DNA of 40,433 nt from a virus, in the UHGV virus genome UHGV-0010553, one strand, 5' to 3'. Shown here piece by piece: positions 1 through 40,433 of this stretch (within the stretch, counting starts at the first letter, position 1; every line of letters begins with the position of its first letter). Both the position numbers and the translations under genes were made by a program. Below the pieces are notes generated by a model. It saw only the letters and a program-made list of their open reading frames with translations, searched no databases and had not been told where the DNA came from.

Positions 1-234
1 GACCTTAGCGTTGCCATAGACCTTAGCGTCGTCATAGACCCAAGCGTCGCCACAGACCTTAGCGTTGCCATAGACCTCGGCGTTGCCATAGACCTCGGCG
101 TCGCCATAGACCTCGGCGTTGCCATAGACCTTAGCGTTGCCATAGACCTTAGCGTTGCCATAGACCTCGGCGTCGCCATAGACCTTAGCGTTGCCATAGA
201 CCTTAGCGTTGCCATAGACCCAAGCGTCGCCAGA
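1..234. repeat. 13 tandem copies of an 18-bp unit (consensus gaccttagcgttgccata). They are coding, giving hexapeptide repeats on the minus strand. The same array is present at 40245..40433.
   Basis: Direct reading: 18-nt periodicity with point variants (ctcggcgtc, ccaagcgtcgccaca). Bases 1-54 are identical to 40380-40433. Confidence 0.9.
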
Positions 235-378
235 GAGATTGGATTCTTTCTCAATATATCCACCTAAATTGCCCTTAGACACTCTTCGCGATTCGATGTC
301 GCAAGTTGCCTCGATTCTAAATAGCCTGCGCCCTAAAAATTCTATTGATAAATCTTCTCTTAATTTAAAATTACTCAT
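1..378 (-). CDS. Hexapeptide-repeat (beta-helix-like) protein, N-terminal part. Start codon at 376-378 (AGGAGG RBS, TAATG overlap with the upstream stop). It runs off the window start and continues, if the molecule is circular, into 40433..40002.
   Basis: Minus-strand translation gives MSNFKLREDLSIEFLGRRLFRIEATCDIESRRVSKGNLGGYIEKESNLSGDAWVYGNAKVYGNAKVYGDAEV... The repeats are V-Y-G-[ND]-A-[KEW], encoded by the 18-bp tandem repeat. The ORF-track frame MATLRS is the wrong frame. Confidence 0.55.
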   Translation of the reverse strand, partial: MSNFKLREDLSIEFLGRRLFRIEATCDIESRRVSKGNLGGYIEKESNLSGDAWVYGNAKVYGNAKVYGDAEVYGNAKVYGNAKVYGNAEVYGDAEVYGNAEVYGNAKVCGDAWVYDDAKVYGNAKV

Positions 379-4889: not shown

Positions 4890-5291
4890 ATGGAAAAACT
4901 TTTAAGTATGTTATATGCCCTGCGCTTTGGCGTTTCTGATGTGCATTATTACGTCAAGGGAGATGACTTTTGGGGCGACCATAAATTCGCAGATGATTTA
5001 CGTTCCGATATAATGGAATGGATTGACCAGATAAACGAGGTTTGTTTCCTTGGCAGTCAAAAAGAAACTCCGTATTCAAAAGATATTATAACCGATTCTC
5101 TTCAATATATCCCCGTAAAAACTCAAGATAGCGAACTTCTTTTTAGAAACGTTCGTGATTTAATTTTTGATATTTTATCACACATCGAATCTTTGTTACC
5201 TGACTCTACAGCCGGAGAGGCAAACCTCGTAGGTGGAATCGCTCAAGAGCTTCAACAGAGATACGGCTTACTCTGGAGAAGAACTAGATGA
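4890..5291 (+). CDS. Ferritin/Dps-like four-helix-bundle protein (putative)
   Basis: LLSMLYALRFGVSDVHYYVKGDDFWGDHKFADDL resembles the Dps helix A/B signature (HW.VKG..F..LH..fee). RBS GGCAAGGAG. Confidence 0.35.
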   Translation: MEKLLSMLYALRFGVSDVHYYVKGDDFWGDHKFADDLRSDIMEWIDQINEVCFLGSQKETPYSKDIITDSLQYIPVKTQDSELLFRNVRDLIFDILSHIESLLPDSTAGEANLVGGIAQELQQRYGLLWRRTR

Positions 5292-5713
5292 ATAAAATTT
5301 TCGACTTAGACAAGATATGGGCTTATTGCTGTTCAGCGATAATGGGGTTTCTTATGCCCATCGGGCATTTGTTTCTGTGGCTGCTTATCTTTGTCTTAGT
5401 CGATATGATAACCGGAGTGTTGGCGAGTCTTATGGAGGGAAAACATATGACTAGTCATAAACTCCAGAAGACGGTTACTAAGTTTCTTCTTTACTCGACC
5501 TCTGTATTTCTGCTTGAGGGAATCGACCACTATATGATTACATTTGCTGATTTGGGATTAGCTAAAATGGGCTGCACAATTATATGCGGGATAGAGTTTT
5601 ATTCCAACTTAGAGAACTGTTATCGGATAACCGGTAATAGAGTTTTTAAGGTTTTGACACGTTTCACATTGAAAAAGATTGAAGATACAACAGGTGTGAA
5701 AATAGAGGATTAA
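5288..5713 (+). CDS. Holin, phiLC3 / holin-4 family
   Basis: MNKIFDLDKIWAYCCSAIMGFLMPIG...LVDMITGVLAS...LYSTSVFLLEGID...SNLEN. Transmembrane segments and the conserved DMITG are present. Confidence 0.75.
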   Translation: MNKIFDLDKIWAYCCSAIMGFLMPIGHLFLWLLIFVLVDMITGVLASLMEGKHMTSHKLQKTVTKFLLYSTSVFLLEGIDHYMITFADLGLAKMGCTIICGIEFYSNLENCYRITGNRVFKVLTRFTLKKIEDTTGVKIED

Positions 5714-8540: not shown

Positions 8541-8956
8541 TTAGATATTAGCGCAAAACTTCTAAGAAAGCGAACATTGTTAATCTTTGTTGCTGCTTCT
8601 TTCCTGTCCTGATCATATCGGAATCCTGTGCGCTCATAGGCGCTGAGCTTAATTAAATCAGGTTGTTCTCCGTGCTTAAACTCTCTATTTTCCGCCACCT
8701 TAGCAGAGATTTTATCCGCAATTAAAAGCTCTTCGGGGCGCATCCTCGCAAGATGGTGCAGCCCAGTTGTGTGGTCGATATTGATAGGCTTACAGAAGGT
8801 ATTTACCGAATAACCTAAATTTTTGCAAACTTGGCAATATATTTTTTTTGCTCTGACGGCGTCCCGTGTTCGCCCCCGGTATCCTATACCTAGAGATGTC
8901 TCAACAATATCTTTTATTTTGCCACATTCTTTAAGATTTATTTGAGTCTTATTCAT
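8537..8956 (-). CDS. DNA-binding protein with a DnaA C-terminal domain-like HTH
   Basis: GRTRDAVRAKKIYCQVCKNLGYSVNTFCKPINIDHTTGLHHLARM matches the DnaA domain IV pattern (R.R.....Q..MYL...T..S...IG..F..DHTTV.HA). Confidence 0.45.
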   Translation of the reverse strand: MNKTQINLKECGKIKDIVETSLGIGYRGRTRDAVRAKKIYCQVCKNLGYSVNTFCKPINIDHTTGLHHLARMRPEELLIADKISAKVAENREFKHGEQPDLIKLSAYERTGFRYDQDRKEAATKINNVRFLRSFALISK

Positions 8957-9108
8957 TGCCGGAATCCTTTATTTTTTCTAGAAGTTCATCACAAGAGTTA
9001 TAAAAATCTTGTATGCTTTTATCCATTTCATCAAAAACAGTCGTTTTTTAACCTCTCAGAAGTTTTTTTGTTGTTTGGTGTAGGGCTTATTATAAAAATT
9101 TGATTCCC

Positions 9109-9360
9109 CTACTCAGCGGTTAAATTTTCCGCCCTACCGCTGATGTCTTCAGTAAAGATTAGTTTAAAGTTTCTCATATCGTCGGAAACGTCAACTGCTT
9201 CGAGTTCGCTTAAGTTCTCTATTTTTTTAACAACACCTTCAAAGACTCGCAAGATTCCGTTTTGCTCGTCTGTCAAAAAATAGGCTCTTTTTTTGACACC
9301 CTTTTGAGCTTGGCGGCTTTGATAGTCCGCTATTGCTCTTTTAGTGCTTTCGTAATACAT
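9109..9360 (-). CDS. Hypothetical protein (83 aa)
   Basis: ORF in the minus early operon. Confidence 0.4.
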   Translation of the reverse strand: MYYESTKRAIADYQSRQAQKGVKKRAYFLTDEQNGILRVFEGVVKKIENLSELEAVDVSDDMRNFKLIFTEDISGRAENLTAE

Positions 9361-9389
9361 TGTTTTTAACCCCTTAAATCTCTATTTTT

Positions 9390-9719
9390 TTATTCCATAT
9401 CTTGAACGAGTTTCGCTAAAAGACTAGTTATCTTGTTATTTTCGGCAAAAAGCGAGTAATAAGACTCTAAATCCTGCCCGCCATTTGCCAAATCTTCGGC
9501 GATTTCTTCAAGCGCATCGATTCTGGCTTGGTCTTCGTTGTATTCTGTTTCTTTGCCATAGCAAGCAAAGCCGACTCCGTTGTTATAGTATCCACAATCA
9601 ACCACCTGTGGATTGTAGTCTTCGGGCTTTTCTTCAATAAGCTGTTCGGCTCGTTTTTGCGCCAAATCTTCAACAGCTTTTTTAAATTCGCCATAAAAAT
9701 CGATTAAGTTCTCAATCAT
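9390..9719 (-). CDS. Hypothetical acidic protein (109 aa)
   Basis: ORF; RBS present. Confidence 0.4.
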   Translation of the reverse strand: MIENLIDFYGEFKKAVEDLAQKRAEQLIEEKPEDYNPQVVDCGYYNNGVGFACYGKETEYNEDQARIDALEEIAEDLANGGQDLESYYSLFAENNKITSLLAKLVQDME

Positions 9720-10179: not shown

Positions 10180-10440
10180 TCAATCCTTAGTTTCTAAAAT
10201 TGTCGCCCATATTCCTTTGCGCAACATATACTTGTTAGTTGGCAACATTTCCAAAGTTTGGGCATCAAACGACATTTGACAATTGCCCTCAACCGGCCAG
10301 CCCGTAACTTTGTTAATGTTAAAGCGAACAACTAAACGGTTGTTTATTTTTTTAACAGGCAAATCAAAAACACCAAAACTTTGCTTTTCGATGTCGCGTC
10401 CCAATTTCGCCGACACAAACTTGTACATTTCAATCTTCAT
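10180..10440 (-). CDS. Hypothetical protein (86 aa)
   Basis: First gene downstream of the 10496-10524 promoter. Confidence 0.45.
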   Translation of the reverse strand: MKIEMYKFVSAKLGRDIEKQSFGVFDLPVKKINNRLVVRFNINKVTGWPVEGNCQMSFDAQTLEMLPTNKYMLRKGIWATILETKD

Positions 10441-10495: not shown

Positions 10496-10524
10496 AATAT
10501 AACATAATTTTGTTATAGTGTCAA
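10496..10524 (-). promoter_or_regulatory. Early promoter TTGACA-N17-TATATT, overlapped by the palindrome TATAACA-N6-TGTTATA (10498-10517), a candidate operator
   Basis: Minus strand reads TTGACActataacaaaattatgtTATATT. The inverted repeat is read directly. Confidence 0.5.
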
Positions 10525-10615
10525 CATAAAAAATCAAAAAAAATGCACATTTTAAGAAAAAATATTGATTTTTTTTGTGGATTTGTTAAAATTTATTTAA
10601 AATCAGGGGGTTAAA

Positions 10616-11332
10616 ATGATCGTTGACCTAAAAAAAACACAGCGAATCGAAAAAAAAGAGTATGACCGTCACGGACGGCCGATTCTGAATCCGATTGTCT
10701 TGAACGAGAAGCGTCGAATCGAATCGATTTCGCCGGCAAACCGAACGACAAAGGACAAAATGCGACTGAACAAAATCAAACGTGACGGCGACCACTGCCG
10801 CGCCCAAAACAAGTTCAAGCTCTGCTCGAACAACCCCGAACCCATTGTCGAACTTGAAGATTTGAACAATGCCGCCGAACTTAAAACCGAGGCGCAGGCT
10901 CATCAAGTCATCAATTCAATATATTCCGGCAAGCTGCCGATTGAAGCCATGAATGAAGCGGGCATTTCGCCCAAGTCTTTTTACAGATTTTTAAGAAGAG
11001 GAGAAAACACGGTCCTGCGTTCTGAGTTTTTAAACGCGCGCGAGGTCTTCGCCGAGTACTGCTTGTTCAAACGGCAGCTTCTGGAGGAGCAACTACTCCG
11101 CGGCGTTATAGACAGCTCGACCTATACGACCCTGGCGGCTGATTATAAGTATTTGGCCGCAAAGTTCCACCCCGCGGCATACGGCGACAAACTGAAGCTC
11201 GAAACCGACGTGAAGCACACCGCCCGGTTGGAGGTCTCGCAAACCCGGGTGAAGGCCTTAAATGCGCTTTTATCGGGCAATTTATTGGAAAATCAAACAG
11301 TTACAGCAGATTATGAAGTCTTAGACGGCTAA
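10616..11332 (+). CDS. Terminase small subunit (putative). Its G+C content is markedly higher than the flanking DNA.
   Basis: Position immediately upstream of TerL; HTH-like segment PIEAMNEAGISPKSFYRFLRRGEN. Visibly GC-rich codons, e.g. ccgcggcgttatagacagctcgacctatacgaccctggcggc. Confidence 0.45.
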   Translation: MIVDLKKTQRIEKKEYDRHGRPILNPIVLNEKRRIESISPANRTTKDKMRLNKIKRDGDHCRAQNKFKLCSNNPEPIVELEDLNNAAELKTEAQAHQVINSIYSGKLPIEAMNEAGISPKSFYRFLRRGENTVLRSEFLNAREVFAEYCLFKRQLLEEQLLRGVIDSSTYTTLAADYKYLAAKFHPAAYGDKLKLETDVKHTARLEVSQTRVKALNALLSGNLLENQTVTADYEVLDG

Positions 11333-24554: not shown

Positions 24555-25446
24555 GATATATCGTCTTACGGTTCAACTCCAAGACGAGCAAGGAAAAAAT
24601 ATAAATCAGGCTCTTGAGATTCAAAATCCGTTTACAGTTAAGTTTTCGGTTGATAGATCTATCTATGCCGGATTGAACTCTTTAGATATAGATATTTACA
24701 ATCTATCCCCTAAAAACAGAAACCTTTTGTTTCAAGACGTTTATGGGGATAGAGATGGTAATTATAGAAACGTTATCTTAGAGTCCGGCTACCAAGGGCA
24801 AGGAATGTCCGTTATCTTTAACGGTAACGTTTGGTCTGCTTATTCCAAGAGAAACGGTGTGGACGTTATAACGCATATTTACGCCATTGATGGGCTTTCC
24901 ACTCAATCAGGAATGATAAATACTACCTTAAAGAGCGGAACAACCGCTCAAGAGGTTATCCAAGCTGCGGCAGGGCAACTAAAAGACCTAAAAACTGGCA
25001 CAATGAATATTCCTGACCACACATTTGATCGTCCTGTTGTCCTTGCCGGAAACGCCTATAAGATATTAAAAACTTATTCTGATGATAATGTATTTGTGGA
25101 TATGAAGACAATTCATATTATGAAACCGAATGACGCTATTGAGGGGGTTATTCCTCTTATCACAGATAGTTCAGGACTTTTAGCGACTCCTGAAAGGCAG
25201 GACGCAACATTAACTATCAGAATGATATTTGAACCACGTCTTCAAATCGGGCAGCTGATTCAAGTAAAATCAGAGATTGCGCCTCAATTTGACGGTGTGT
25301 ATAAAATATATGGTATAAAACATAACGGAACAATCAGCGATGCCGTTGCGGAGAATTGCACAACAACAATTCAACTCCAAGTCGGCTCACAAGTATTCGG
25401 GAGGTTCAATGTCCTTAAAGCCGAACAGCAACAAATCTCTAAGTAA
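24538..25446 (+). CDS. Baseplate hub protein (P2 gpD / Mu gp44-like)
   Basis: N-terminal YRLTVQLQDEQGKNINQALEIQNPFTVKFSVDRSIYAGLNSLDIDIYN resembles the GPD family start (RLTV..G.DIT...L.D..G.E.D.L.I.L.N). Confidence 0.5.
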   Translation: MGKLNRIYRLTVQLQDEQGKNINQALEIQNPFTVKFSVDRSIYAGLNSLDIDIYNLSPKNRNLLFQDVYGDRDGNYRNVILESGYQGQGMSVIFNGNVWSAYSKRNGVDVITHIYAIDGLSTQSGMINTTLKSGTTAQEVIQAAAGQLKDLKTGTMNIPDHTFDRPVVLAGNAYKILKTYSDDNVFVDMKTIHIMKPNDAIEGVIPLITDSSGLLATPERQDATLTIRMIFEPRLQIGQLIQVKSEIAPQFDGVYKIYGIKHNGTISDAVAENCTTTIQLQVGSQVFGRFNVLKAEQQQISK

Positions 25447-26071
25447 CGTATTAGACGAGTCTTTTAGTGTCTTTTCTCGGTTCTTCCATTGCGTGAAAAT
25501 CGGGGAAATTCAGTCATTTGATAAACAAAATCAAACTGTTTCCGTAAAGATTCTCTATAAAGGGATTAACGATTATAATCTTCAAGAAAGAGAATTGGTC
25601 GATTTTCCAGTTTTAGAGCAAGTTCCCGTAGTCGTTTTGGGCGGTGGTGGAACTTATATCTCATACCCTATCAAAAAGGGCGATGATTGCGTTCTCTTGT
25701 TTAACGATTACGAACTAGACGGTTGGTGGTCTTCTGGTGAGGCTAGACCTTCTGAATTTCCTCGTAGACACGATTTGTCGGACGCTATCGCTATTGTCGG
25801 GCTTAATTCTCTTGTTTCCTTAATAAAAGATTATTCGGATTTTCTGAAAATTCATTATTCCGATTCGTCAAATATCACCGTTGGAAACACAATAGAAATA
25901 ACCAACCAGACAATCAATCTTAATGGCAATTCTAATGTTTCAGGAAATGAAACAGTTTCAGGAACAGTAACAGGAGAGGTTCACTCAACACACGGTGCAA
26001 GTGGTAGCTTCTCAAATGCTGCAGGACAAACACTTACCATTGTTGACGGTGTTATAACGTCTATATCATAA
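25409..26071 (+). CDS. Baseplate spike protein gpV-like (OB-fold plus C-terminal beta-helix tip)
   Basis: PVLEQVPVVVLGGGGTYISYPIKKGDDCVLLFNDYELDGWW is a gpV OB-fold signature. The C-terminus is repetitive: ITVGNTIEITNQTINLNGNSNVSGNETVSGTVTGEV. GGGAGG RBS at MSLKPN. Confidence 0.6.
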   Translation: MSLKPNSNKSLSNVLDESFSVFSRFFHCVKIGEIQSFDKQNQTVSVKILYKGINDYNLQERELVDFPVLEQVPVVVLGGGGTYISYPIKKGDDCVLLFNDYELDGWWSSGEARPSEFPRRHDLSDAIAIVGLNSLVSLIKDYSDFLKIHYSDSSNITVGNTIEITNQTINLNGNSNVSGNETVSGTVTGEVHSTHGASGSFSNAAGQTLTIVDGVITSIS

Positions 26072-26116: not shown

Positions 26117-26177
26117 TCACCTCTCAACTACGAAAGTATTTTTAATATACAAGATTTATCCCAAAAGTCAAGAACTA

Positions 26178-26203
26178 AAAACGAACCTTTAATTTACCGA
26201 ATG
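26178..26203 (+). other. Recombination crossover site S1 (aaaacgAACCTTTAATTTACCgaatg), forward orientation
   Basis: One of six copies of the 15-bp core AACCTTTAATTT(G/A)CC. Confidence 0.6.
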
Positions 26204-26502
26204 CTTCTGGTAGGTCTGTCTTTCAATCCGCAGATAAAACACTAGGGAATGGTGGCGCAGGTGCATTGCCGAATATTACGGGTAAATTTGCGGTAGGTAA
26301 TACTCAATCACCCCCTATTGACCCCATAGGTCAAGGAGCATTCGAAGACCATGGTATATCAGGTGGGACTGTGGGGTCTGCCTTTACGCCAGCAGGTACA
26401 TATTATGACTTTGACGCCTCGCGGTCAAACAGCTTATATCGAAGTGATACTGATATAGTGATACCTGCTAGTATTTTGGTTATGTTTGCCATAAAATATT
26501 AG
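26179..26502 (+). CDS. Promoterless tail-fibre C-terminal cassette A. It begins at crossover site S1 (KRTFNLPNASGRSV...) and ends ...FDASRSNSLYRSDTDIVIPASILVMFAIKY.
   Basis: The frame opens exactly at the site (stop-K-R-T-F-N-L-P-N). The C-terminal FDASRS...V.P....AIKY motif is shared with the other cassettes. Confidence 0.6.
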   Translation, partial: KRTFNLPNASGRSVFQSADKTLGNGGAGALPNITGKFAVGNTQSPPIDPIGQGAFEDHGISGGTVGSAFTPAGTYYDFDASRSNSLYRSDTDIVIPASILVMFAIKY

Positions 26503-26807
26503 AACTTAATACAGTAAGACACCTCAATATTGTCAGGTTGAACTTTCGCGCCGTCTTGGTAAGTTGAAGATGAACGAGAGGCGTCAAAAGCATAACCAAA
26601 CAATTTTTCTGCGTTACTTCCTGTACCCGCATAATCTCTACCAGTCGCAGCATCAACATAAAAAGCTCCCGTTGCTGATCTATCGTTTGATCTTAAAGTT
26701 GTATTACCTTTAATATTCGGCAAACTCTCGCTGTTATATGTGCCTGCTGTTCCGCCTTTTAGAAATCTTCCAACAAGGTTAGGCAAATTAAAGGTTGAAT
26801 TATAAGT
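26499..26807 (-). CDS. Tail-fibre C-terminal cassette B (TFNLPNLVGRFLKGG...YCIKF), convergent with cassette A; the stops overlap
   Basis: Starts at site S2; the LPNLVGRFLKGG segment parallels LPDLRGRF at the end of a tail-collar domain. Confidence 0.6.
   Translation of the reverse strand, partial: TYNSTFNLPNLVGRFLKGGTAGTYNSESLPNIKGNTTLRSNDRSATGAFYVDAATGRDYAGTGSNAEKLFGYAFDASRSSSTYQDGAKVQPDNIEVSYCIKF
26778..26801 (-). other. Crossover site S2 (reverse orientation)
   Basis: ggcaaattaaaggtt on the plus strand at 26782-26796. Confidence 0.6.
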
Positions 26808-26868
26808 TTACTTTTCAATAAAATGGATTTAGTATTATTCTGTTAACGTTAACGAAAGGTATTTTAAT

Positions 26869-27288
26869 ATGCTTGCATATCAATATAATGAAGATTCTAA
26901 GAAGTTTACAAACGAGATTACTTGCCAGAAAGACCCGTTAGAATCTGAAATGGCAGGTAAAGACATCTGGTTACTACCTGCTAATTCCACTTGGGAAAAA
27001 CCTTTAGAGCCTAAAGAGGGCTTTGAAGTTAAGTTTTTAGAGGGCAAGTGGCAGTATGAGGCTATCCCTGAACCTGAACCCGAGCCAGAGCCCGAACCGA
27101 CTGAAAAAGAAAAGATTGAGCGTGAAATTTGGAATCTCAAGGGCGAACTTAGCTCTACAGATTATAAGGCTATCAAATACGCCGAGGGTTGGATTAGTGA
27201 AGAAGAATACGCCCCTATTAAGGCAGAACGCCAAGCCTTGAGAGATAAGATTAACGAATTGGAAGAAAAGTTAAAAACGCTTGAATAA
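26869..27288 (+). CDS. Tail-fibre-associated protein (XkdW-like, putative fibre assembly/chaperone) with an (EP)n linker
   Basis: YNEDSKKF...DIWLLPANSTWEKPLEP...EPEPEPEPEPEP...; GAAAGG RBS. Confidence 0.4.
   Translation: MLAYQYNEDSKKFTNEITCQKDPLESEMAGKDIWLLPANSTWEKPLEPKEGFEVKFLEGKWQYEAIPEPEPEPEPEPTEKEKIEREIWNLKGELSSTDYKAIKYAEGWISEEEYAPIKAERQALRDKINELEEKLKTLE
27061..27096 (+). repeat. Simple (GAACCN)n / (Glu-Pro)n repeat
   Basis: cctgaacctgaacccgagccagagcccgaaccg. Confidence 0.8.
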
Positions 27289-27888
27289 ATGAACTATGCC
27301 TATCTAAGAATTAGCACCGTTGCACAAGACGAACAGAACCAACGCCAAGGCGTTGATTTGAAGGCAAAACAGCTCAATTTACAGATAGACAAATACATAA
27401 TTGACAAGGTTTCAGGATCTACATCTCCAAAAGTCCGAAATCTCGGTAAACTAATAAAGTGGCTAAAAACCGGTGACGTTGTGATTGTTTCAGAACTATC
27501 TAGGCTTAGCCGCTCTCTTTTTGACTTGTTTAATATTTTTCAAGCTATCCTTGCTAAAGGAATAAAACTCATCACTGTTAAAGAGAACTTTGTTGTTGAC
27601 GATTCTATCCAATCCAAGGCAATGATATTTGCATTTGGGCTAAGCGCAGAGATTGAAAAGAATCTTATCCGTGAGCGGACAAAGGAAGCATTAGAAAGAA
27701 AAAAGGCTCTGGGTGTACGCCTAGGGCGCCCACAAGGGGCAAAAACAAAAATCCATAAACTAGAACGCTATAAACAAAATATCGCTCTATGGCTTAAAAA
27801 AGGCGTTTCTAGACATAAAATAGCAAAGCGGTGTAAAGTATGCGATAAAACGTTAAGACGGTATATAAAAGCAAATAACCTCGGATAA
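27289..27888 (+). CDS. Serine recombinase, DNA invertase (Gin/Hin/Cin/Min-like)
   Basis: YLRISTVAQ (catalytic Ser), ELSRLSRS, ERTKEAL, and a C-terminal HTH RHKIAKRCKVCDKTLRRYIK. 199 aa, Hin/Gin size; sits among tail-fibre cassettes. Confidence 0.8.
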   Translation: MNYAYLRISTVAQDEQNQRQGVDLKAKQLNLQIDKYIIDKVSGSTSPKVRNLGKLIKWLKTGDVVIVSELSRLSRSLFDLFNIFQAILAKGIKLITVKENFVVDDSIQSKAMIFAFGLSAEIEKNLIRERTKEALERKKALGVRLGRPQGAKTKIHKLERYKQNIALWLKKGVSRHKIAKRCKVCDKTLRRYIKANNLG

Positions 27889-27997
27889 ACATTTTTTTTG
27901 CGCATTTTAGCCCATTTAGTGCCACTTTATGAGATTTTTTCTCAAAATAAGCCCTTAAAACGTCTAATTGTGGCAGATTCGCCATAATTAAAACATT

Positions 27998-28023
27998 TTA
28001 ACGAACCTTTAATTTGCCTAATG
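27998..28023 (+). other. Crossover site S3 (forward)
   Basis: ttttaacgAACCTTTAATTTGCCtaatgg. Confidence 0.6.
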
Positions 28024-28337
28024 GCTATTGGAGACTCACCGATGAGTTAGATGCAAGCACTGCAGTTACGAAATATGTCAACAATGAAACCTTTACGGAC
28101 GATGGATGGGCGGCGATTTCGGCTAAAGGAACTGATAGAGGAACTCCCACATATACTTGGAATGGACAATCGATTACCGGCTTTGCCAACGGAGCAAGTT
28201 ATTTGCAAATCCCCAATATATTGTCATTATCGCACCAGGCTGGTGATTCTTTTGCTGTTAATGGTGATGGCTCATATAGAGGATATATTGGAATGGCTTA
28301 TAAAAACCCTCGACAACTTTATTGCATAAAGTATTAG
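28002..28337 (+). CDS. Tail-fibre C-terminal cassette E (RTFNLPNGYWRLTDELD...LYCIKY). Near-identical inverted copy of cassette G.
   Basis: The frame opens at S3. Its 107-aa sequence is identical to ORF 31959..32282 except one residue (E/K). Confidence 0.6.
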   Translation, partial: RTFNLPNGYWRLTDELDASTAVTKYVNNETFTDDGWAAISAKGTDRGTPTYTWNGQSITGFANGASYLQIPNILSLSHQAGDSFAVNGDGSYRGYIGMAYKNPRQLYCIKY

Positions 28338-29434
28338 TATTTTATCGCATACTTAATACAAGTATCTTCCTCACTGATAATTCCTGACGTTTGCGAATCC
28401 GTGCTTATGCCCCAAACTCCGGTATTCGCCACAAATAATGAGGTGTTACCTAATACTCTATTGGTTGAAAATTGAAAGTAACCCCCCATACCAGAAGTCG
28501 CATTATTGCCGGGATAGCGAGTTTCTTTGGCATTTAAAACATTTAACCCTAAGCCGTTACCATCGCCAATAACGTTTCTCGTTAAGAACTGCCTATTCGG
28601 CAAATTAAAGGTTGATTTATCGTTCCCACTGTTTCTGGTATAAGTTGCGCCTGCCGAATCTGTGAATCCGGTGTCTGTGATTGTGGCAATAGTAGCGGTT
28701 ATTGAAGCTCCATCCGAACCATAGATAGCATCTCCAACTTCTGGAGTTGCTTTGTTAATAAAATAGTCAACACCTGATGAAGTGTATGCATAGATACCAG
28801 ATGAATAGATACCGCCGATAACGGCAAACAGGGCAGAATAAGTTGTTCTTGATACAGCTGAACCATCACAAATAAGGTAGCCTGCAGGAGCGGTTGAGGT
28901 AGACCAAGCGATGATTGCTCCGGTAGGATTACCTGCGGATTGTGTGGCGTTGTAAACCGCAGCAGATGACGGGTATTTTGTAGTTGAATCAGTCAGGTCT
29001 TGCTCCATATTAGCCAAGGTCTGAAGTCCTTGTGTAGTGTTGTAAACCAAATCCCAGTTATTGGCTGTAGTCGGAGCAATACCTGCTGTTTCATCAACTT
29101 TGCATTTATAGAGAGCGTAGTCAGAATCAGTGATAACTTTAACAACTGCGCCTTTATAATAAGTAGTTCCAGAATCATACTCAGGAATACCCTCTTGCAT
29201 AAGATAGGCAATCTGGCTTGTCTGCATATATTGAAGCCCTTGAAATTCCTCAAGAGGAGGTAGCTTTTCAGAAGAAATAGTTGCTGAGTTCCAACCTGTT
29301 TTATAAGCGTCCAAGGACTGAATTTGAGCAATATCATTTGATACAGTTCCAGTTCCTGCTTGTAAAGAGCCAAACACACCGTTATTGGTTGCATTTTCAG
29401 CAAATACTTTTTGAGTTTTTCTTGCAAGTTTCAT
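28334..29434 (-). CDS. Tail fibre protein, currently assembled. It has a constant N-terminal part with a phage tail-collar domain (29434..28614) fused at site S4 to a variable C-terminal cassette (28613..28334).
   Basis: AIIAWSTSTAPAGYLICDGSAVSRTTYSALFAVIGGIY...KSTFNLPNRQFL is a tail-collar signature; the TFNLPN is encoded by crossover site S4. C-terminus is CIKYAIKY. AGGAGAG RBS. Confidence 0.75.
   Translation of the reverse strand: MKLARKTQKVFAENATNNGVFGSLQAGTGTVSNDIAQIQSLDAYKTGWNSATISSEKLPPLEEFQGLQYMQTSQIAYLMQEGIPEYDSGTTYYKGAVVKVITDSDYALYKCKVDETAGIAPTTANNWDLVYNTTQGLQTLANMEQDLTDSTTKYPSSAAVYNATQSAGNPTGAIIAWSTSTAPAGYLICDGSAVSRTTYSALFAVIGGIYSSGIYAYTSSGVDYFINKATPEVGDAIYGSDGASITATIATITDTGFTDSAGATYTRNSGNDKSTFNLPNRQFLTRNVIGDGNGLGLNVLNAKETRYPGNNATSGMGGYFQFSTNRVLGNTSLFVANTGVWGISTDSQTSGIISEEDTCIKYAIKY
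28595..28617 (-). other. Crossover site S4 (reverse). It lies inside the expressed tail-fibre gene, at the collar TFNLPN motif.
   Basis: ggcaaattaaaggtt at 28599-28613. Confidence 0.6.
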
Positions 29435-29436
29435 AG

Positions 29437-30054
29437 CTACTCTCCTATTACTTCAATAATCTTATGATAGTTTAATGTTTCTCCGACTTTTTCGGGATTA
29501 TCATACGTCCTAAATCCCGTTTTGTAAAATGCGTATTGATTGTCGTATGTAACGAACCCGAATATTGGAGAATTTTGAACAATAACGTATCTAACGCCTA
29601 CTCCCATAGGGCGAGGTAGACAATCCTTCTGAATAGCCGCTATAACTACACGAGAAGCCCCTTCAGGAATAAAAAAGGTAAGTTCCATACCACCATTGGA
29701 TTCCGCCCTCACAGTTCGCCCAAAGAAGCTATATAATGCCGTGTCAATATCATAATGCGAACAGTTACTTGTGTTGGCAATACATTTAAACTTTAACAGA
29801 GTTCTAAACTCGTCATCTGTCAGTTCGATAATCTCGCCTTTAGTTCCGATATAGTATCTGTCAGTTCCGACATATTTAGCAAGAATATCTAATTGTTTAC
29901 CGACAGCGGTTTCAAGAGAAAATCCATCCCTGACAGCAAAAATCAAATCAACCGGAAACTGACTACCAATAGCCTTTATGGTTTCTTTTGCTTTGGGTTT
30001 ATCTCTATACTGTATAATTAAGAGTTCGGATAAATATTGTGCATAATCAAACAA
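29437..30054 (-). CDS. Baseplate protein gpI-like (P2 I / XkdU-like). TTG start immediately after the J stop.
   Basis: Position between gpJ and the fibre; ~200 aa. Confidence 0.4.
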   Translation of the reverse strand: MFDYAQYLSELLIIQYRDKPKAKETIKAIGSQFPVDLIFAVRDGFSLETAVGKQLDILAKYVGTDRYYIGTKGEIIELTDDEFRTLLKFKCIANTSNCSHYDIDTALYSFFGRTVRAESNGGMELTFFIPEGASRVVIAAIQKDCLPRPMGVGVRYVIVQNSPIFGFVTYDNQYAFYKTGFRTYDNPEKVGETLNYHKIIEVIGE

Positions 30055-31251
30055 TTATACCCCCCCCTGAACAGTTATATCAACCGTGGACAGGACAAAT
30101 TTCGTTGCAATAACAGGTGAAAGATACTCAACCCAATCTGTGCCGTTACTAGAGATTAAAACATTTAGAGCTAGACCTTCTCCACCATTAGCGTCAATAG
30201 CCGCTTGAGCGGTTGCTGTAAGAGAGGCTGTATCTGCATATCCACCAATCATAAAAGAAGTGTTATCGATGATATACTGCGAGATAGCGTCTGTATCAAA
30301 AGTAATGTCTGTTTTCAAAGACTTAATTGTAAATCTCATTTGAATATTTTGAGTTGTCGGTTCGCTCCACTTAGCAATAAACTGTTGGTTTGACGGAGTT
30401 GTAATAGTATATGAAATATCGCCTTTCATATCACAACCATAAGATTTTTTAACATATAAAGCGTTTGCAATATCTTTTGACGCTCCACCCTCTACAATAA
30501 GCCAAATACAATGAGGTGGGATACCCTTTGAATCGGTAACGCTAGAGTAGTTTTCATAAAGCGCACCATCCGTAACGCCGTTTAGTTGGAGGACATAAGC
30601 TAAAAGGCCGTTAAGGTATCCCGAAGAACCGATTGAAACAGATTGTCTGCGTCTGATTTTAAGAGAGGTATCTGTTTCTTCATTCTCTCCTAAAGTCAGT
30701 TGCGCACCAGTATTTATAACCGAAACCACGCCCAAAACAATAGTAACAGGAGTTGTGATAGTTTCAGGGATAACTTCCACCCTTCCAAGCTGTTGGGCGC
30801 GGAATAAAACACTATGCGTTCCAGCTGTCAGTGTTTGAGAGTTTACGAGAATAAACTGAGTTCCTGCGTTATCTTGAATCGTGTAACCAGTAGCGTCAAC
30901 ATCGTTATAATTTGCGTCTAGTCCTTGTAAAGATACTGTTCTGTCTACTGTTATTGAAATGTCTACCGTTGTGAAAGTTCCGCCTTTACGGAATACGTTA
31001 TTGATAGCACATCTCTCGTCAAGGAGTCTTCCTGAACAGTTATCGGGGTCAAAAGAATTATATAGTTGAACCAAGAGTTCTCTAATATCCGTCTGTCCCT
31101 GAGCAAAAATATTGATAGCCTGTCCATCAGGCGAGTTCTGCTCGACAGAAATATCATCTCCATATACAGTCTTAAAAGAAGTTGTCAAATCATCGACAAG
31201 CTCTGTATTTGTTGAAACCTGTAAACCGTTTGCGCTTAATGAATCGGTCAT
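30055..31251 (-). CDS. Baseplate J-like protein (P2 gpJ / Mu gp47 family)
   Basis: 398 aa, located between the gpW-like and gpI-like genes; GAGGT RBS. Confidence 0.55.
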   Translation of the reverse strand: MTDSLSANGLQVSTNTELVDDLTTSFKTVYGDDISVEQNSPDGQAINIFAQGQTDIRELLVQLYNSFDPDNCSGRLLDERCAINNVFRKGGTFTTVDISITVDRTVSLQGLDANYNDVDATGYTIQDNAGTQFILVNSQTLTAGTHSVLFRAQQLGRVEVIPETITTPVTIVLGVVSVINTGAQLTLGENEETDTSLKIRRRQSVSIGSSGYLNGLLAYVLQLNGVTDGALYENYSSVTDSKGIPPHCIWLIVEGGASKDIANALYVKKSYGCDMKGDISYTITTPSNQQFIAKWSEPTTQNIQMRFTIKSLKTDITFDTDAISQYIIDNTSFMIGGYADTASLTATAQAAIDANGGEGLALNVLISSNGTDWVEYLSPVIATKFVLSTVDITVQGGV

Positions 31252-31589
31252 ATCTTTACCTCAATAGTTTCATTGTAAATCGTCTTTAATCTTGCTGCGC
31301 AAGTATATACTCTACCAGCCATAGAGCTTTCAAAGAACGTAAGCTCAGTAACGCCTTCTTCTGTGGATATAATTCTTTTTATGGCGGAATCTGCGTCATC
31401 TTTTGAAACCTTAGAACCTAAGATATTCTTCCAGTCAACGCCCTTTTCCATATCAAAAAAGCAATCTCTATACCACGATAGGATTTTTGTCTTAATCGAA
31501 TAAGCAATAGCTAAAGCATCTGAGGAATAATCCTGCTTACCTTTTCCGAACAACCAATCGTGATTACTATCCAAAGCTCTAAATCTCAT
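31248..31589 (-). CDS. Baseplate wedge protein gpW / gp25-like
   Basis: 113 aa, upstream of J; typical gene order W-J-I-fibre. Confidence 0.45.
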   Translation of the reverse strand: MRFRALDSNHDWLFGKGKQDYSSDALAIAYSIKTKILSWYRDCFFDMEKGVDWKNILGSKVSKDDADSAIKRIISTEEGVTELTFFESSMAGRVYTCAARLKTIYNETIEVKI

Positions 31590-31606
31590 TTAACACCTCT
31601 ACAAGC

Positions 31607-31635
31607 ATAATATAAGACTTGATTAAAAAAATCAA
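31607..31635 (-). promoter_or_regulatory. Promoter TTGATT-N17-TATTAT reading into gpW-J-I-fibre. It lies inside the putatively invertible S4-S5 segment.
   Basis: Minus strand reads TTGATTtttttaatcaagtcttaTATTAT. Confidence 0.4.
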
Positions 31636-31649
31636 ATCATATGGAATTT

Positions 31650-31675
31650 AAAACGAACCTTTAATTTGCCTAATG
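31650..31675 (+). other. Crossover site S5 (forward)
   Basis: aaaacgAACCTTTAATTTGCCtaatg. Confidence 0.6.
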
Positions 31676-31962
31676 CTTCTGGCAAATCTCTTTATCAGAA
31701 CGACACTCTAGACATAGGTCAAGGAACACTTGGCGCTGTGCCGAATATTAGAGGAAGTGTTGAAATTAATACCGGTACACATACTTTTAATGGCGCATTT
31801 TATAGCACAAATGTTTCATATAGTCGCAGTGTATCATCTTCGACCCATACTACTGACGTTGCGTTAGGATTTGACGCCTCTAAATCTTCTTCCGTTTATA
31901 CGGACGACATAACTCGCGTAATCCCTGCAGCCATTCATATTGTTTTTGCGATAAAATACTAA
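31651..31962 (+). CDS. Tail-fibre C-terminal cassette F (KRTFNLPNASGKSLYQ...FDASKSSSVYTDDITRVIPAAIHIVFAIKY), homologous to cassette A
   Basis: Frame opens at S5; shares the N-terminal LPNASG and C-terminal motifs with cassette A. Confidence 0.6.
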   Translation, partial: KRTFNLPNASGKSLYQNDTLDIGQGTLGAVPNIRGSVEINTGTHTFNGAFYSTNVSYSRSVSSSTHTTDVALGFDASKSSSVYTDDITRVIPAAIHIVFAIKY

Positions 31963-32297
31963 TACTTTATGCAATAAAGTTGTCGAGGGTTTTTATAAGC
32001 CATTCCAATATATCCTCTATATGAGCCATCACCATTAACAGCAAAAGAATCACCAGCCTGGTGCGATAATGACAATATATTGGGGATTTGCAAATAACTT
32101 GCTCCGTTGGCAAAGCCGGTAATCGATTGTCCATTCCAAGTATATGTGGGAGTTCCTCTATCAGTTCCTTTAGCCGAAATCGCCGCCCATCCATCGTCCG
32201 TAAAGGTTTCATTGTTGACATATTTCGTAACTGCAGTGCTTGCATCTAACTTATCGGTGAGTCTCCAATAGCCATTAGGCAAATTAAAGGTTCGTTT
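31959..32297 (-). CDS. Tail-fibre C-terminal cassette G (inverted near-identical copy of E)
   Basis: Protein identical to cassette E except one residue; starts at S6. Confidence 0.6.
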   Translation of the reverse strand, partial: KRTFNLPNGYWRLTDKLDASTAVTKYVNNETFTDDGWAAISAKGTDRGTPTYTWNGQSITGFANGASYLQIPNILSLSHQAGDSFAVNGDGSYRGYIGMAYKNPRQLYCIKY

Positions 32298-32298
32298 T
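32273..32298 (-). other. Crossover site S6 (reverse)
   Basis: ggcaaattaaaggttcgtttt at 32278-32298. Confidence 0.6.
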
Positions 32299-32310
32299 TA
32301 GTTCTGCAAT

Positions 32311-32339
32311 TTGACAATTAAATTTAGTTTTCGTATTTT
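32311..32339 (+). promoter_or_regulatory. Promoter-like TTGACA-N17-TATTTT upstream of 32361
   Basis: ttgacaattaaatttagttttcgtatttt, then an AAAAAGGAG RBS. Confidence 0.35.
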
Positions 32340-32360: not shown

Positions 32361-32579
32361 ATGAGAGTTGGTAGCCAAATATTGATTGATAGAACGACAA
32401 CGGCAAGTGCTGCTTATGTCGGTGTTTCCGCTAGTGGAACAAAAGAAGGCGATCCCAACTGGTCTATCGAAAAAATAACCTATGATGAAGATGGAAAACC
32501 TATCTCTATTCAATGGGCAGAGGGAACTGATGAAGAAGTCCTCGTTTGGGATAACCGTGTAACATACAAGTATAAATAA
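32361..32579 (+). CDS. Small hypothetical protein (72 aa)
   Basis: Strong RBS. Confidence 0.45.
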   Translation: MRVGSQILIDRTTTASAAYVGVSASGTKEGDPNWSIEKITYDEDGKPISIQWAEGTDEEVLVWDNRVTYKYK

Positions 32580-33535
32580 TGATAACCGCTATTGACTTAA
32601 AGACTGGGAAGCCCTTACTCCTTGATATTGCCAAAGAAGAAATAACTCCCACCCTTGGCTCGCACTCCACATTAACAGACAGAACTATTGCCGACCAACA
32701 CCCTATTGGGTCTATTACTGGTTTGGAAACCCGTCTTTCAACTAATGAAGAAGACATCGCTACCCTTAAAAACGACAGGGACGATTTAGGCGACCAAGTC
32801 CACTCAATTCAAGCTGACGTAAACTCACTTAAAGATACTTCTGTTACTCTTACCGGAGAGCAGACGTTGTCTAATAAATCATTTAAAGATTCCCTGAAAG
32901 CAGTTGGAGATGAAACAATAGGAGAAACTTTTGAGGTTTCATTCCTTGCCGGAACTGCGCAGCTTGCAACAAACAATGGGTTAGATATTCTTTCGGAAAC
33001 TAACTTTTTAACCAATCCTCAAACAGAGGCAACGACTGATTGGGATTCTCTTGCTCCATCAGAATTGCCTAGCAAAAGTCAAGTTGCTCAGGCTATTTCA
33101 GAGGTTACAGGCTCTCACTTTGACAAGTGGGTTGCGATGGGAGCTCCAGAAGCTCTTACTCTTACGGAAACCCTGCAAAAGGTATATATCCCCGCGACAA
33201 CAAGATTTCCGAATATTCCGCCTGCAACATTTGAGCTTACAGAAGACGGGACAGGTATCACATTCAAAAAAGCCGGTTTAATTCATCTTAAGAGAAACGT
33301 ATCCCTTAGTGGAGCTAATCAGGTAAACCTTTATTATGAGGCTCGTATTAACGACCAACAGCTTGCACCTTTGCAGACACAAGCTGTTAGTGTTTCTGAA
33401 AACACGATGTCGTTTAGTATTGAATTTTATTGGCAAGTAACAGCTAATCAGACAATATCTATTTGGGCTAACTGCTTAACTGGAACAGCTCCCTTAAACT
33501 ATAAGGGAGTCTGCACAATGGTTGAATATCTATAA
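32579..33535 (+). CDS. Second fibre-like or receptor-binding protein candidate (coiled-coil N-terminus plus C-terminal beta-rich domain)
   Basis: LETRLSTNEEDIATLKNDRDDLGDQVHSIQADVNSLKD coiled coil, then a Ser/Thr-rich region. Confidence 0.35.
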   Translation: MITAIDLKTGKPLLLDIAKEEITPTLGSHSTLTDRTIADQHPIGSITGLETRLSTNEEDIATLKNDRDDLGDQVHSIQADVNSLKDTSVTLTGEQTLSNKSFKDSLKAVGDETIGETFEVSFLAGTAQLATNNGLDILSETNFLTNPQTEATTDWDSLAPSELPSKSQVAQAISEVTGSHFDKWVAMGAPEALTLTETLQKVYIPATTRFPNIPPATFELTEDGTGITFKKAGLIHLKRNVSLSGANQVNLYYEARINDQQLAPLQTQAVSVSENTMSFSIEFYWQVTANQTISIWANCLTGTAPLNYKGVCTMVEYL

Positions 33536-40039: not shown

Positions 40040-40433
40040 CGCAAATCTGTTTTAATATTGGTTTCCAAGTTTTCCACCATTCAACAGCTTTTTTACCATC
40101 CATTTTCTCAATTTCCGAATCTTTGAATTTGAACCAAGCTACTTTTGAATGATATTGGCAACCAATTTTTATGTGTAAGGGCGTTAAGGTTATATTATAT
40201 TTTTGATTGGCGATGTTTACTACACTGCGTTTGGTGTCGATAGCGTCGCCATAGACCTCGGCGTTGCCATAGACCTCGGCGTTGCCATAGACCTTAGCGT
40301 TGCCATAGACCTCGGCGTCGCCATAGACCTTAGCGTTGCCATAGACCTTAGCGTCGTCATAGACCCAAGCGTCGCCACAGACCTTAGCGTTGCCATAGAC
40401 CTTAGCGTCGTCATAGACCCAAGCGTCGCCACA
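40002..40433 (-). CDS. Hexapeptide-repeat protein, C-terminal part: repeats to 40245, then a ~80-aa non-repeat tail ending ...CDAQDKDLEKTNE*
   Basis: Hand translation of the repeat frame: ...VYGNAEVYGDAIDTKRSVVNIANQKYNITLTPLHIKIGCQYHSKVAWFKFKDSEIEKMDGKKAVEWWKTWKPILKQICDAQDKDLEKTNE. The ORF-track entry 40220..40432 is the wrong frame. Confidence 0.5.
   Translation of the reverse strand, partial: CGDAWVYDDAKVYGNAKVCGDAWVYDDAKVYGNAKVYGDAEVYGNAKVYGNAEVYGNAEVYGDAIDTKRSVVNIANQKYNITLTPLHIKIGCQYHSKVAWFKFKDSEIEKMDGKKAVEWWKTWKPILKQICDAQDKDLEKTNE
40245..40433. repeat. Same 18-bp tandem repeat array as at 1..234, 10.5 units
   Basis: Direct reading. Confidence 0.9.

Follow-up and report, generated by a model that had tools for sequence, protein, structure and literature searches.

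The tail-fiber locus of UHGV-0010553

We examined the tail-fiber locus of UHGV-0010553, the genome of an uncultivated phage. The stretch that we analyzed, which we will call the window, is 40,433 nucleotides long. At this locus, a tail-fiber gene, three baseplate genes, and a gene for a serine DNA invertase are interspersed with six copies of a short sequence. Upstream, the plus strand (about 10.6 kb to 26.07 kb) encodes the terminase, portal, capsid, sheath, Dit-like, hub, and spike proteins; the minus strand has genes for replication and recombination (DnaB, ERF, and a methylase). The genes of the locus are:

25409..26071, plus strand: spike/hub gene V (220 amino acids; spike N-terminal domain PF18352, 4e-25), with which the plus-strand late operon ends ahead of the shufflon
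26869..27288, plus strand: tail-fiber assembly gene, tfa (phrog_105, 1.4e-5), the sole such gene in the locus
27289..27888, plus strand: serine DNA invertase, 199 amino acids (PF00239, 6.6e-31, and a helix-turn-helix (HTH); phrog_125, DNA invertase, 6e-42)
28334..29434, minus strand: tail-fiber gene H, 366 amino acids (PF07484, Collar), with its constant region (Hc) at 28614-29434
29437..30054, minus strand: I-like baseplate wedge gene (PF11041, 3e-22)
30055..31251, minus strand: J-like baseplate wedge gene (phrog_6, 1.7e-35)
31248..31589, minus strand: W, a gp25-like baseplate wedge or sheath initiator gene (phrog_120, 2.7e-22; PF10934, Sheath_initiator)
32361..33535, plus strand: two late genes (72 and 318 amino acids), the right-hand fixed flank of the shufflon

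The original prediction for this locus, which was made by reading the sequence, put V on the plus strand and W, J, I, and the fiber on the minus strand, and both the profile matches and the strands agree with this. W, J, I, and Hc form a block (28614-31589, minus strand) that runs opposite to V and to all the other structural genes. The homolog of tfa in a related contig (L014, described below) matches PF16778 (Phage_tail_APC). The exact H protein (P0001) is present in several samples. Relative to the fibers of lineage B (also described below), H has an insertion of about 60 amino acids within the Collar domain, between AVIGGIYS and TFNLP (28614-28830; residues about 212-280).

Six sites and six fiber cassettes

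The 15-mer AACCTTTAATTTGCC is found six times in the window (with one mismatch in S1), as compared to 0.19 copies expected, and none of 100 shuffles gave six. Three of the copies are on the plus strand (S1, S3, and S5) and three are on the minus strand (S2, S4, and S6). When we compared the six sites, two halves could be told apart: the half that is distal to the adjoining fiber cassette (the L half) always stays with its fixed flank, while the other half (the R half, TTTAATTTGCC...) goes with the cassette. In every recombination, therefore, an L half is joined to an R half. The sites are:

26172..26203 (core 26184-26198), plus strand: S1, with one mismatch; its L half is on the V side
26778..26808 (core 26782-26796), minus strand: S2; its L half leads into tfa
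27992..28023 (core 28004-28018), plus strand: S3, followed by cassette c3
28595..28625 (core 28599-28613), minus strand: S4, within the fiber gene, on the TFNLP codons
31644..31675 (core 31656-31670), plus strand: S5; its L half is joined to the region upstream of W, 62 nt before the W start codon
32273..32304 (core 32278-32292), minus strand: S6; the 72-aa and 318-aa genes follow its L half

The cassettes that adjoin them are:

26185..26502, plus strand: c1, silent, 105 amino acids from TFNLP, an intact in-frame open reading frame (ORF) ending in AIKY
26499..26795, minus strand: c2, silent, 98 amino acids, convergent with c1
28005..28337, plus strand: c3, silent, 110 amino acids, a near-identical duplicate of c6
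28334..28612, minus strand: c4, fused to the fiber in the window
31657..31962, plus strand: c5, silent, 101 amino acids
31959..32291, minus strand: c6, silent, 110 amino acids, the duplicate of c3

All six cassettes are open in the TFNLPN frame directly after their site, are 92-110 codons long, and encode a C-terminus of IK[YF]. They form three convergent pairs (c1/c2, c3/c4, and c5/c6) whose stop codons overlap. The tfa and invertase genes lie between the first and second pairs, and Hc-I-J-W lies between the second and third pairs. With arrowheads for the direction of the reading frames, the layout is: V> S1 c1> <c2 S2 tfa> inv> S3 c3> <c4 S4 <Hc <I <J <W S5 c5> <c6 S6, and then 72-aa> and 318-aa>.

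We then simulated the inversions. Every cassette gave an intact fiber of 366-384 amino acids (379 amino acids for S4 x S1). Cassettes c5 and c6 reach Hc only via S4 x S5, which turns the 3.05-kb block. S4 and S6 are in direct orientation, and recombination between them would thus remove the block. Because c3 and c6 are duplicates, there are five distinct tips.

Hence we propose that this locus is a six-site tail-fiber shufflon driven by the 199-aa serine invertase. The pairs of cassettes, which are bounded by R halves, alternate with modules that have L halves at their borders: tfa-invertase, W-J-I-Hc, and all the remaining genome. Given this alternation, Hc and the three baseplate wedge genes would be an internal invertible module with a bank of cassettes on each side. 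S4 x S3 or S4 x S1 would give the fiber a new tip and would not turn the block. S4 x S5 would turn the block and join the fiber to c5, or to c6 if S5 x S6 had flipped beforehand. As an explanation for the locus as a whole, we consider a six-site shufflon with an invertible W-J-I-Hc module to be probable, and we hold it with moderate confidence.

Several other features of the sites and cassettes stood out. One tfa gene is present for all six cassettes. The C-terminal I[KR][YF] is conserved in all of the cassettes here and in the relatives, and it may be a handle for the fiber chaperone. The fixed flanks of S1 (26164-26203) and S6 (32273-32312) are 88% identical over 40 nt, and both have a -35-like TTGAC(T/A), which suggests that the V-side site S1 was born from a duplication of the downstream flank.

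The invertase is related to Mpi

The 199-aa protein is a small serine recombinase. PF00239 covers residues 3-143, and Ser9 (in the motif YLRIS) is invariant in six homologs. HTH_23 aligns to residues 159-195 with 21.2 bits, which is under the Pfam cut-off of 24.6. The structure matches include gamma-delta resolvase and Gin, with values from 1e-9 to 1e-11. Gin (4m6f, 8.9e-10) is no closer than gamma-delta resolvase (1.7e-11). The best NCBIfam match is to the Mpi family (NF009949, 204.2 bits, 1.8e-60, aligned over positions 1-197 of 203); the score does not reach the equivalog cut-off of 272 bits, so the invertase is related to Mpi but is not an equivalog.

We also considered the Hin/Gin/Cin/Pin subfamily and rejected it, as Gin is no closer than the resolvase, Mpi is the best match, and the sites lack the 12-bp dyad. 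In a search of the six sites for a hix-like dyad, none was found: the best scores were 6-8/12, at inconsistent positions. The sites show strong asymmetry, and a resemblance to TTATCAAAAACC (7-8/12) is confined to the L half.

Relatives with and without the invertase

The original prediction proposed a comparison to related genomes. In all ten of the loci from relatives without the invertase, hub-V-W-J-I-H is collinear on one strand (L001-L008, whose J proteins are 52-80% identical, and the phages with P0007 and P0008), so the arrangement in the window is derived. V and W mostly abut in these relatives. The V-W junction is also a hot spot for insertions: L022 and L023 have an HNH endonuclease gene there (5164-5655), and L003 has an unexplained gap of 740 nt (8924-9662).

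Three groups of relatives have the invertase. The first, lineage B (L014-L017), has a J that is 84% identical and an invertase that is 66% identical, and it has five sites. In contigs from at least three samples, W-J-I-Hc lies between two pairs of cassettes and is opposite to V. Four fibers from lineage B have near-identical constant regions and diverge totally after TFN[IL]P. A close relative of L014, L018, has a backbone that is 98-99% identical, and its tfa-invertase module is flipped, with the exchange exactly at the L halves. This shows that inversion in nature also affects L-bounded modules that are not cassettes, and it is the only clean site-specific event between these two contigs. 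We ruled out that L018 arose from L014 by inversions alone, as the composition of the pairs differs and one cassette is a mosaic. This is the first cassette of L018, which resembles cassette cB of L014 at both ends and cA in the middle, so cassettes are also exchanged by homologous recombination.

Second, lineage D is represented by L030, whose invertase is 62% identical and whose J is 26% identical. The order in L030 is hub-V-tfa-invertase, a cassette pair, an inverted Hc-I-J-W, another cassette pair, and lysis genes. L032 is from the same metagenome and is 93-95% identical to L030, but its 2.86-kb block is collinear with V. In L032 the invertase ends at residue 114, where it is joined to the L half upstream of W (10323-10410), and 866 nt are missing, namely the 3' end of the invertase gene and one cassette pair. 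Judging from these junctions, L032 is apparently a deletion derivative of the collinear isomer that is now locked, with a dead invertase.

Third, lineage E (L027, L028, L036, and L037; invertase 68% identical) has the classical order V-W-J-I-Hc, a pair, tfa-invertase, and another pair. It has the same TFNLP sites, paired cassettes, and tfa-invertase module as the window. In contrast to the window, a site upstream of W is lacking, and inversion is confined to the cassettes, tfa, and the invertase. L036 and L037 are 99.7-99.9% identical and are different isomers: their breakpoints are within the sites, and the fiber is fused to a different cassette in each. Here the switching of fiber tips by this family of invertases is seen directly in nature.

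Overall, comparing these sequences confirms the architecture, in which Hc and three baseplate genes are an invertible module. The layout is kept in three lineages, and both orientations are found in one of them.

A final relative, the short contig L026 (1.85 kb), has the 3' end of a fiber adjoining the flank that is proximal to W in the window and in L014. The homologs of the 72-aa and 318-aa genes come after its fiber cassettes.

The relatives also have some peculiarities around the invertase gene. The stop codon of the invertase gene overlaps with a crossover site in lineages B and D (L014, 12382-12396; L018, 5713-5722; L030, 10582). Its TAA comes from the R half (TTTAAT), and the protein therefore has the same end whichever cassette is attached. 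In L030, the invertase is in two frames (10500-10590; tblastn pieces of 3-182 and 170-198) and the ORF continues into a cassette, due to either a frameshift or a sequencing error. The last part of L036, at the end of the invertase (11215-11254), is the L half in a fold-back copy, and five contigs from IMG/VR (L027, L029, and L033-L035) stop at or within the invertase gene. These contig ends are consistent with mixed isomers in those samples.

A 350-nt inverted repeat encloses the block

Besides S4 and S5, the block in the window is enclosed by a nearly perfect inverted repeat:

28000..28349, no strand: left arm of the 350-nt inverted repeat, made up of S3 and c3, with one mismatch to 31947-32296
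31947..32296, no strand: right arm, made up of c6 and S6

The sole mismatch is at 28044 (a G) versus 32252. The original prediction bounded the invertible segment by S4 and S5, and those bounds held up, but it overlooked this repeat.

The repeat could invert the block by another route. Host RecA or the phage's own ERF might invert 28350-31946 by recombination between the arms, which would turn the operon, leave the tip unchanged, and not involve the invertase. The length of the repeat with its single mismatch favors this idea, as does the ERF-family recombinase that the phage encodes. Yet lineages B and D have the same layout without long repeats, so the repeat does not define the architecture, and homologous recombination leaves unexplained why crossover sites lie exactly at both ends of the block. 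We consider this explanation to be fairly unlikely.

We also located other assemblies of this phage, by exact look-ups of its proteins (W, the invertase, H, the 72-aa protein, and the c3/c6 ORFs). In four other assemblies, the block is on its own contig of 3.6-3.9 kb, the remainder of the genome is a contig of 36.5-36.7 kb, and the ends of the contigs fall exactly at the arms of the repeat. Only the source scaffold of the window (scaffold_479) crosses the arms. Thus, the unit whose orientation is ambiguous in the assemblies is the larger segment from S3 to S6, because of the 350-bp repeat. We had hoped to use the allele at the mismatch as a marker for flipping, and dropped this: L013 has the other allele on the invertase side, and one arm is seen there.

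These broken assemblies raise the issue of an artefact. The scaffolder may have picked an orientation arbitrarily over the repeat, and in the dominant genome W-J-I-H might be collinear with V (the S3 x S6 isomer). That the four assemblies split into a block contig and a 36.5 kb remainder, and that a single scaffold spans the arms, is what this would predict. On the other side, the one-base difference between the arms gives the assembler some anchor. Also, L014, L018, and L030 were assembled with the block inverted, and the repeats around their blocks are at most 113 nt long with 86-90% identity. Since these repeats are short and imperfect, the orientation in those contigs is reliable. We therefore doubt that the window is misassembled, and even if it were, S4 and S5 would still flank the block and the claim about the architecture would hold.

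Promoter-like elements beside the sites

In one orientation or both, the W-J-I-H operon is separated from the late operon. A promoter in the 62-nt spacer that lies between S5 and W is thus the most likely source of its transcription. A candidate is present there:

31635-31607, minus strand: promoter-like TTGATT-N17-TATTAT, in the 62-nt spacer between S5 and W, matching 9/12 of the consensus

The palindrome TTGATTTTTTTAATCAA (31619-31635) overlaps the -35-like hexamer upstream of W and may be an operator. In all three lineages (the window, L014, and L030), the spacer between the site and W is 60-80 nt and contains a promoter-like element on the strand of W. In L014 it is TTGAAA-16-TATAAT, which matches 11/12 (0.2 expected locally), and in L030 it is TTTACA-17-TAGGAT. 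Two more of the L flanks in the window have such elements: between S2 and tfa (26795-26824), and between S6 and the 72-aa gene (TTGACA-17-TATTTT, 32311-32339). This pattern of motifs would fit with each module bringing its own promoter.

Does the block still invert?

Several observations weigh against our proposal. First, the other assemblies break at the repeat, so the orientation of the block relative to V in this phage rests on one scaffold. Second, all of the assemblies that cover S4 and S5 share the same junctions (Hc-c4 at S4 and c5-W at S5). Third, in a collection of 15 billion proteins, we found no Hc fused to c1, c2, c3, or c5, and the next-best match was 61% identical. Fourth, the inverted orientation is dominant in lineages B and D as well, which fits a fixed arrangement equally well. 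Fifth, L026 is suggestive only: it could equally have a simpler, classical layout with two sites instead of a flipped block. Finally, in 6.8 kb of AT-rich DNA, there are 21 promoter-like matches as compared to 19.5 expected from shuffles (in the 100 nt near W, there is 1 match and 0.4 are expected). TTGATT-N17-TATTAT is where the original prediction placed the operon's own promoter, but it is a weak match to the consensus, no better than chance, and is a candidate promoter.

Some of these observations would be explained if the rearrangement is frozen. Perhaps an invertase inverted the block in an ancestor and the order of genes is now fixed, with the pair at S5/S6 feeding the fiber by homologous recombination or gene conversion. 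The block does have the same orientation in the window, L014-L017, L018, and L030; the junctions at S4 and S5 are identical across samples of this phage; and the mosaic cassettes of L014 and L018 imply that homologous exchange among cassettes occurs. Four findings speak for an active system instead. S4 and S5 both carry, without any mismatch, the core that is used at the other sites. The block is in the other orientation in L032. The cassettes on the W side are intact in three lineages, although flipping the block is the only route to their expression. And L018 versus L014 illustrates that L-bounded modules do invert in nature. We think it is fairly unlikely that the rearrangement is frozen.

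The shufflon with a movable block remains our preferred explanation, and the block likely flips in this phage's own population today. We infer the exact crossover point and the function of the promoter. As for the original prediction's idea of a movable W-J-I-fiber unit, the bounding sites, the layouts of the relatives, and the opposite orientations in L030 and L032 uphold it, and the same junctions in all samples give no sign of a flip in this phage. Related genomes do not always have a single orientation (L014, L018, and L030 are inverted and L032 is collinear), and the cores of S4 and S5 are free of mutations. It was also suggested that the assembled state is only one isomer. Different isomers are indeed found among the relatives; for this phage, the exact-protein look-ups returned only the isomer in the window and contigs split at the repeat, with no alternative isomer in the other samples or proteins.

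The genome and its host

The window corresponds to the complete genome of a myovirus, about 40.6 kb in size, opened within an 18-nt tandem array. The array has about 24 copies in total, split over the two ends of the window (1-236 and 40241-40431). The contig is a circularly closed genome that was cut inside a repeat-containing gene on the minus strand.

A megablast search with 24.5-33.6 kb found no match among 50,697 phage records. Protein searches against cultured phages gave distant matches only, such as J of Bdellovibrio phage phi1422 (37% identity). The phage homologs closest to the invertase are from fecal contigs and Bacteroides phage B124-14 (about 43% identity). We scanned the contigs of GTDB genomes twice, with J and with an alignment of the invertase, and found no relative. 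The genes of the window are preceded by strong Shine-Dalgarno sequences, as read directly from the sequence, which argues against a host from the Bacteroidota.

Comparison to known inversion systems

In several phages, small serine invertases act on sites inside the tail-fiber gene and switch the host range: Gin (G segment, Mu), Cin (C segment, P1), Pin (e14), and Min (the plasmid/phage p15B). Min has six crossover sites and many isomers. The sites of Hin, Gin, Cin, and Pin are 26 bp, with two imperfect 12-bp inverted half-sites and a 2-bp core, and a Fis-dependent recombinational enhancer lies in the 5' part of the invertase gene. In Mu and P1, there is one fiber-assembly gene per tip. Such inversion of fiber tips is a textbook way of changing the host range. 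To our knowledge, in all of the characterized cases (Mu, P1, e14, and p15B), the constant part of the fiber stays in place, and what moves is limited to the tips and their chaperones.

The locus described here resembles these systems in that short sites lie in the fiber gene and C-terminal cassettes are arranged in convergent pairs. There are six sites, as in Min, and as in Min-type systems, at least three sites are present in both orientations and the cassettes give in-frame fusions with one constant region. Unlike those systems, Hc with W, J, and I lies between two sites and has cassette banks on both sides, which is also the case in L014, L018, and L030. Other differences are the single assembly gene, the Mpi-like enzyme, and sites without a dyad like that of hix or gix. 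In short, the logic is the same as for Gin, Cin, Pin, and Min; what differs is that the acceptor gene is movable, that the invertase is from another branch of serine invertases, and that there is one chaperone for all tips.

The Salmonella Hin/H segment has two sites and no coding cassettes and is an ON/OFF promoter switch; the segment carries a promoter and the complete hin gene. As with Hin, expression depends on what rides inside the segment, but the module here carries an essential virion operon, which should be ON whichever way it is turned.

Shufflons are another point of comparison. In the R64 shufflon, a tyrosine recombinase, Rci, acts on pilV, and in R64 and prophage shufflons the constant region is fixed outside of the shufflon. 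A prophage shufflon is also known from Bifidobacterium, with the recombinase Rin (PMC6109161). As in R64 and Rin, inversion among multiple sites swaps C-termini, which are joined to an N-terminal region that is constant, in an adhesin or receptor-binding protein. R64 and Rin are not known to invert a structural operon, in contrast to the layout in the window.

The curated family that is closest to the phage invertase is Mpi, the master DNA invertase of Bacteroides fragilis, a serine invertase with many sites that flips the promoters of polysaccharide loci in the chromosome (PMC4747536). Mpi inverts promoters, whereas the phage system inverts coding cassettes. The affinity of the invertase's sequence to Mpi rather than to Gin or Hin suggests that serine invertases were recruited a second time, independently, to vary the host range of phages.

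Implications

In the open-access literature, we found no description of baseplate genes within an invertible segment that switches fibers. The relatives raise the question of whether this is a conserved class of shufflons, found in at least three lineages of uncultivated myoviruses, in which an Mpi-like invertase and asymmetric sites toggle a baseplate-fiber operon with its own promoter between two banks of cassettes. We see the evidence for such a class as evenly balanced.

Regions of this type break metagenome assemblies and may be mis-oriented in reference genomes, and predicting the host range from one assembled isomer understates the repertoire (here, five distinct tips). If our proposal is correct, then invertase systems can reorganize core structural operons without loss of function, structural operons can gain autonomous promoters, and banks of cassettes are possible on both sides of an acceptor gene. 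The orientation of an essential virion operon would be a programmed variable.

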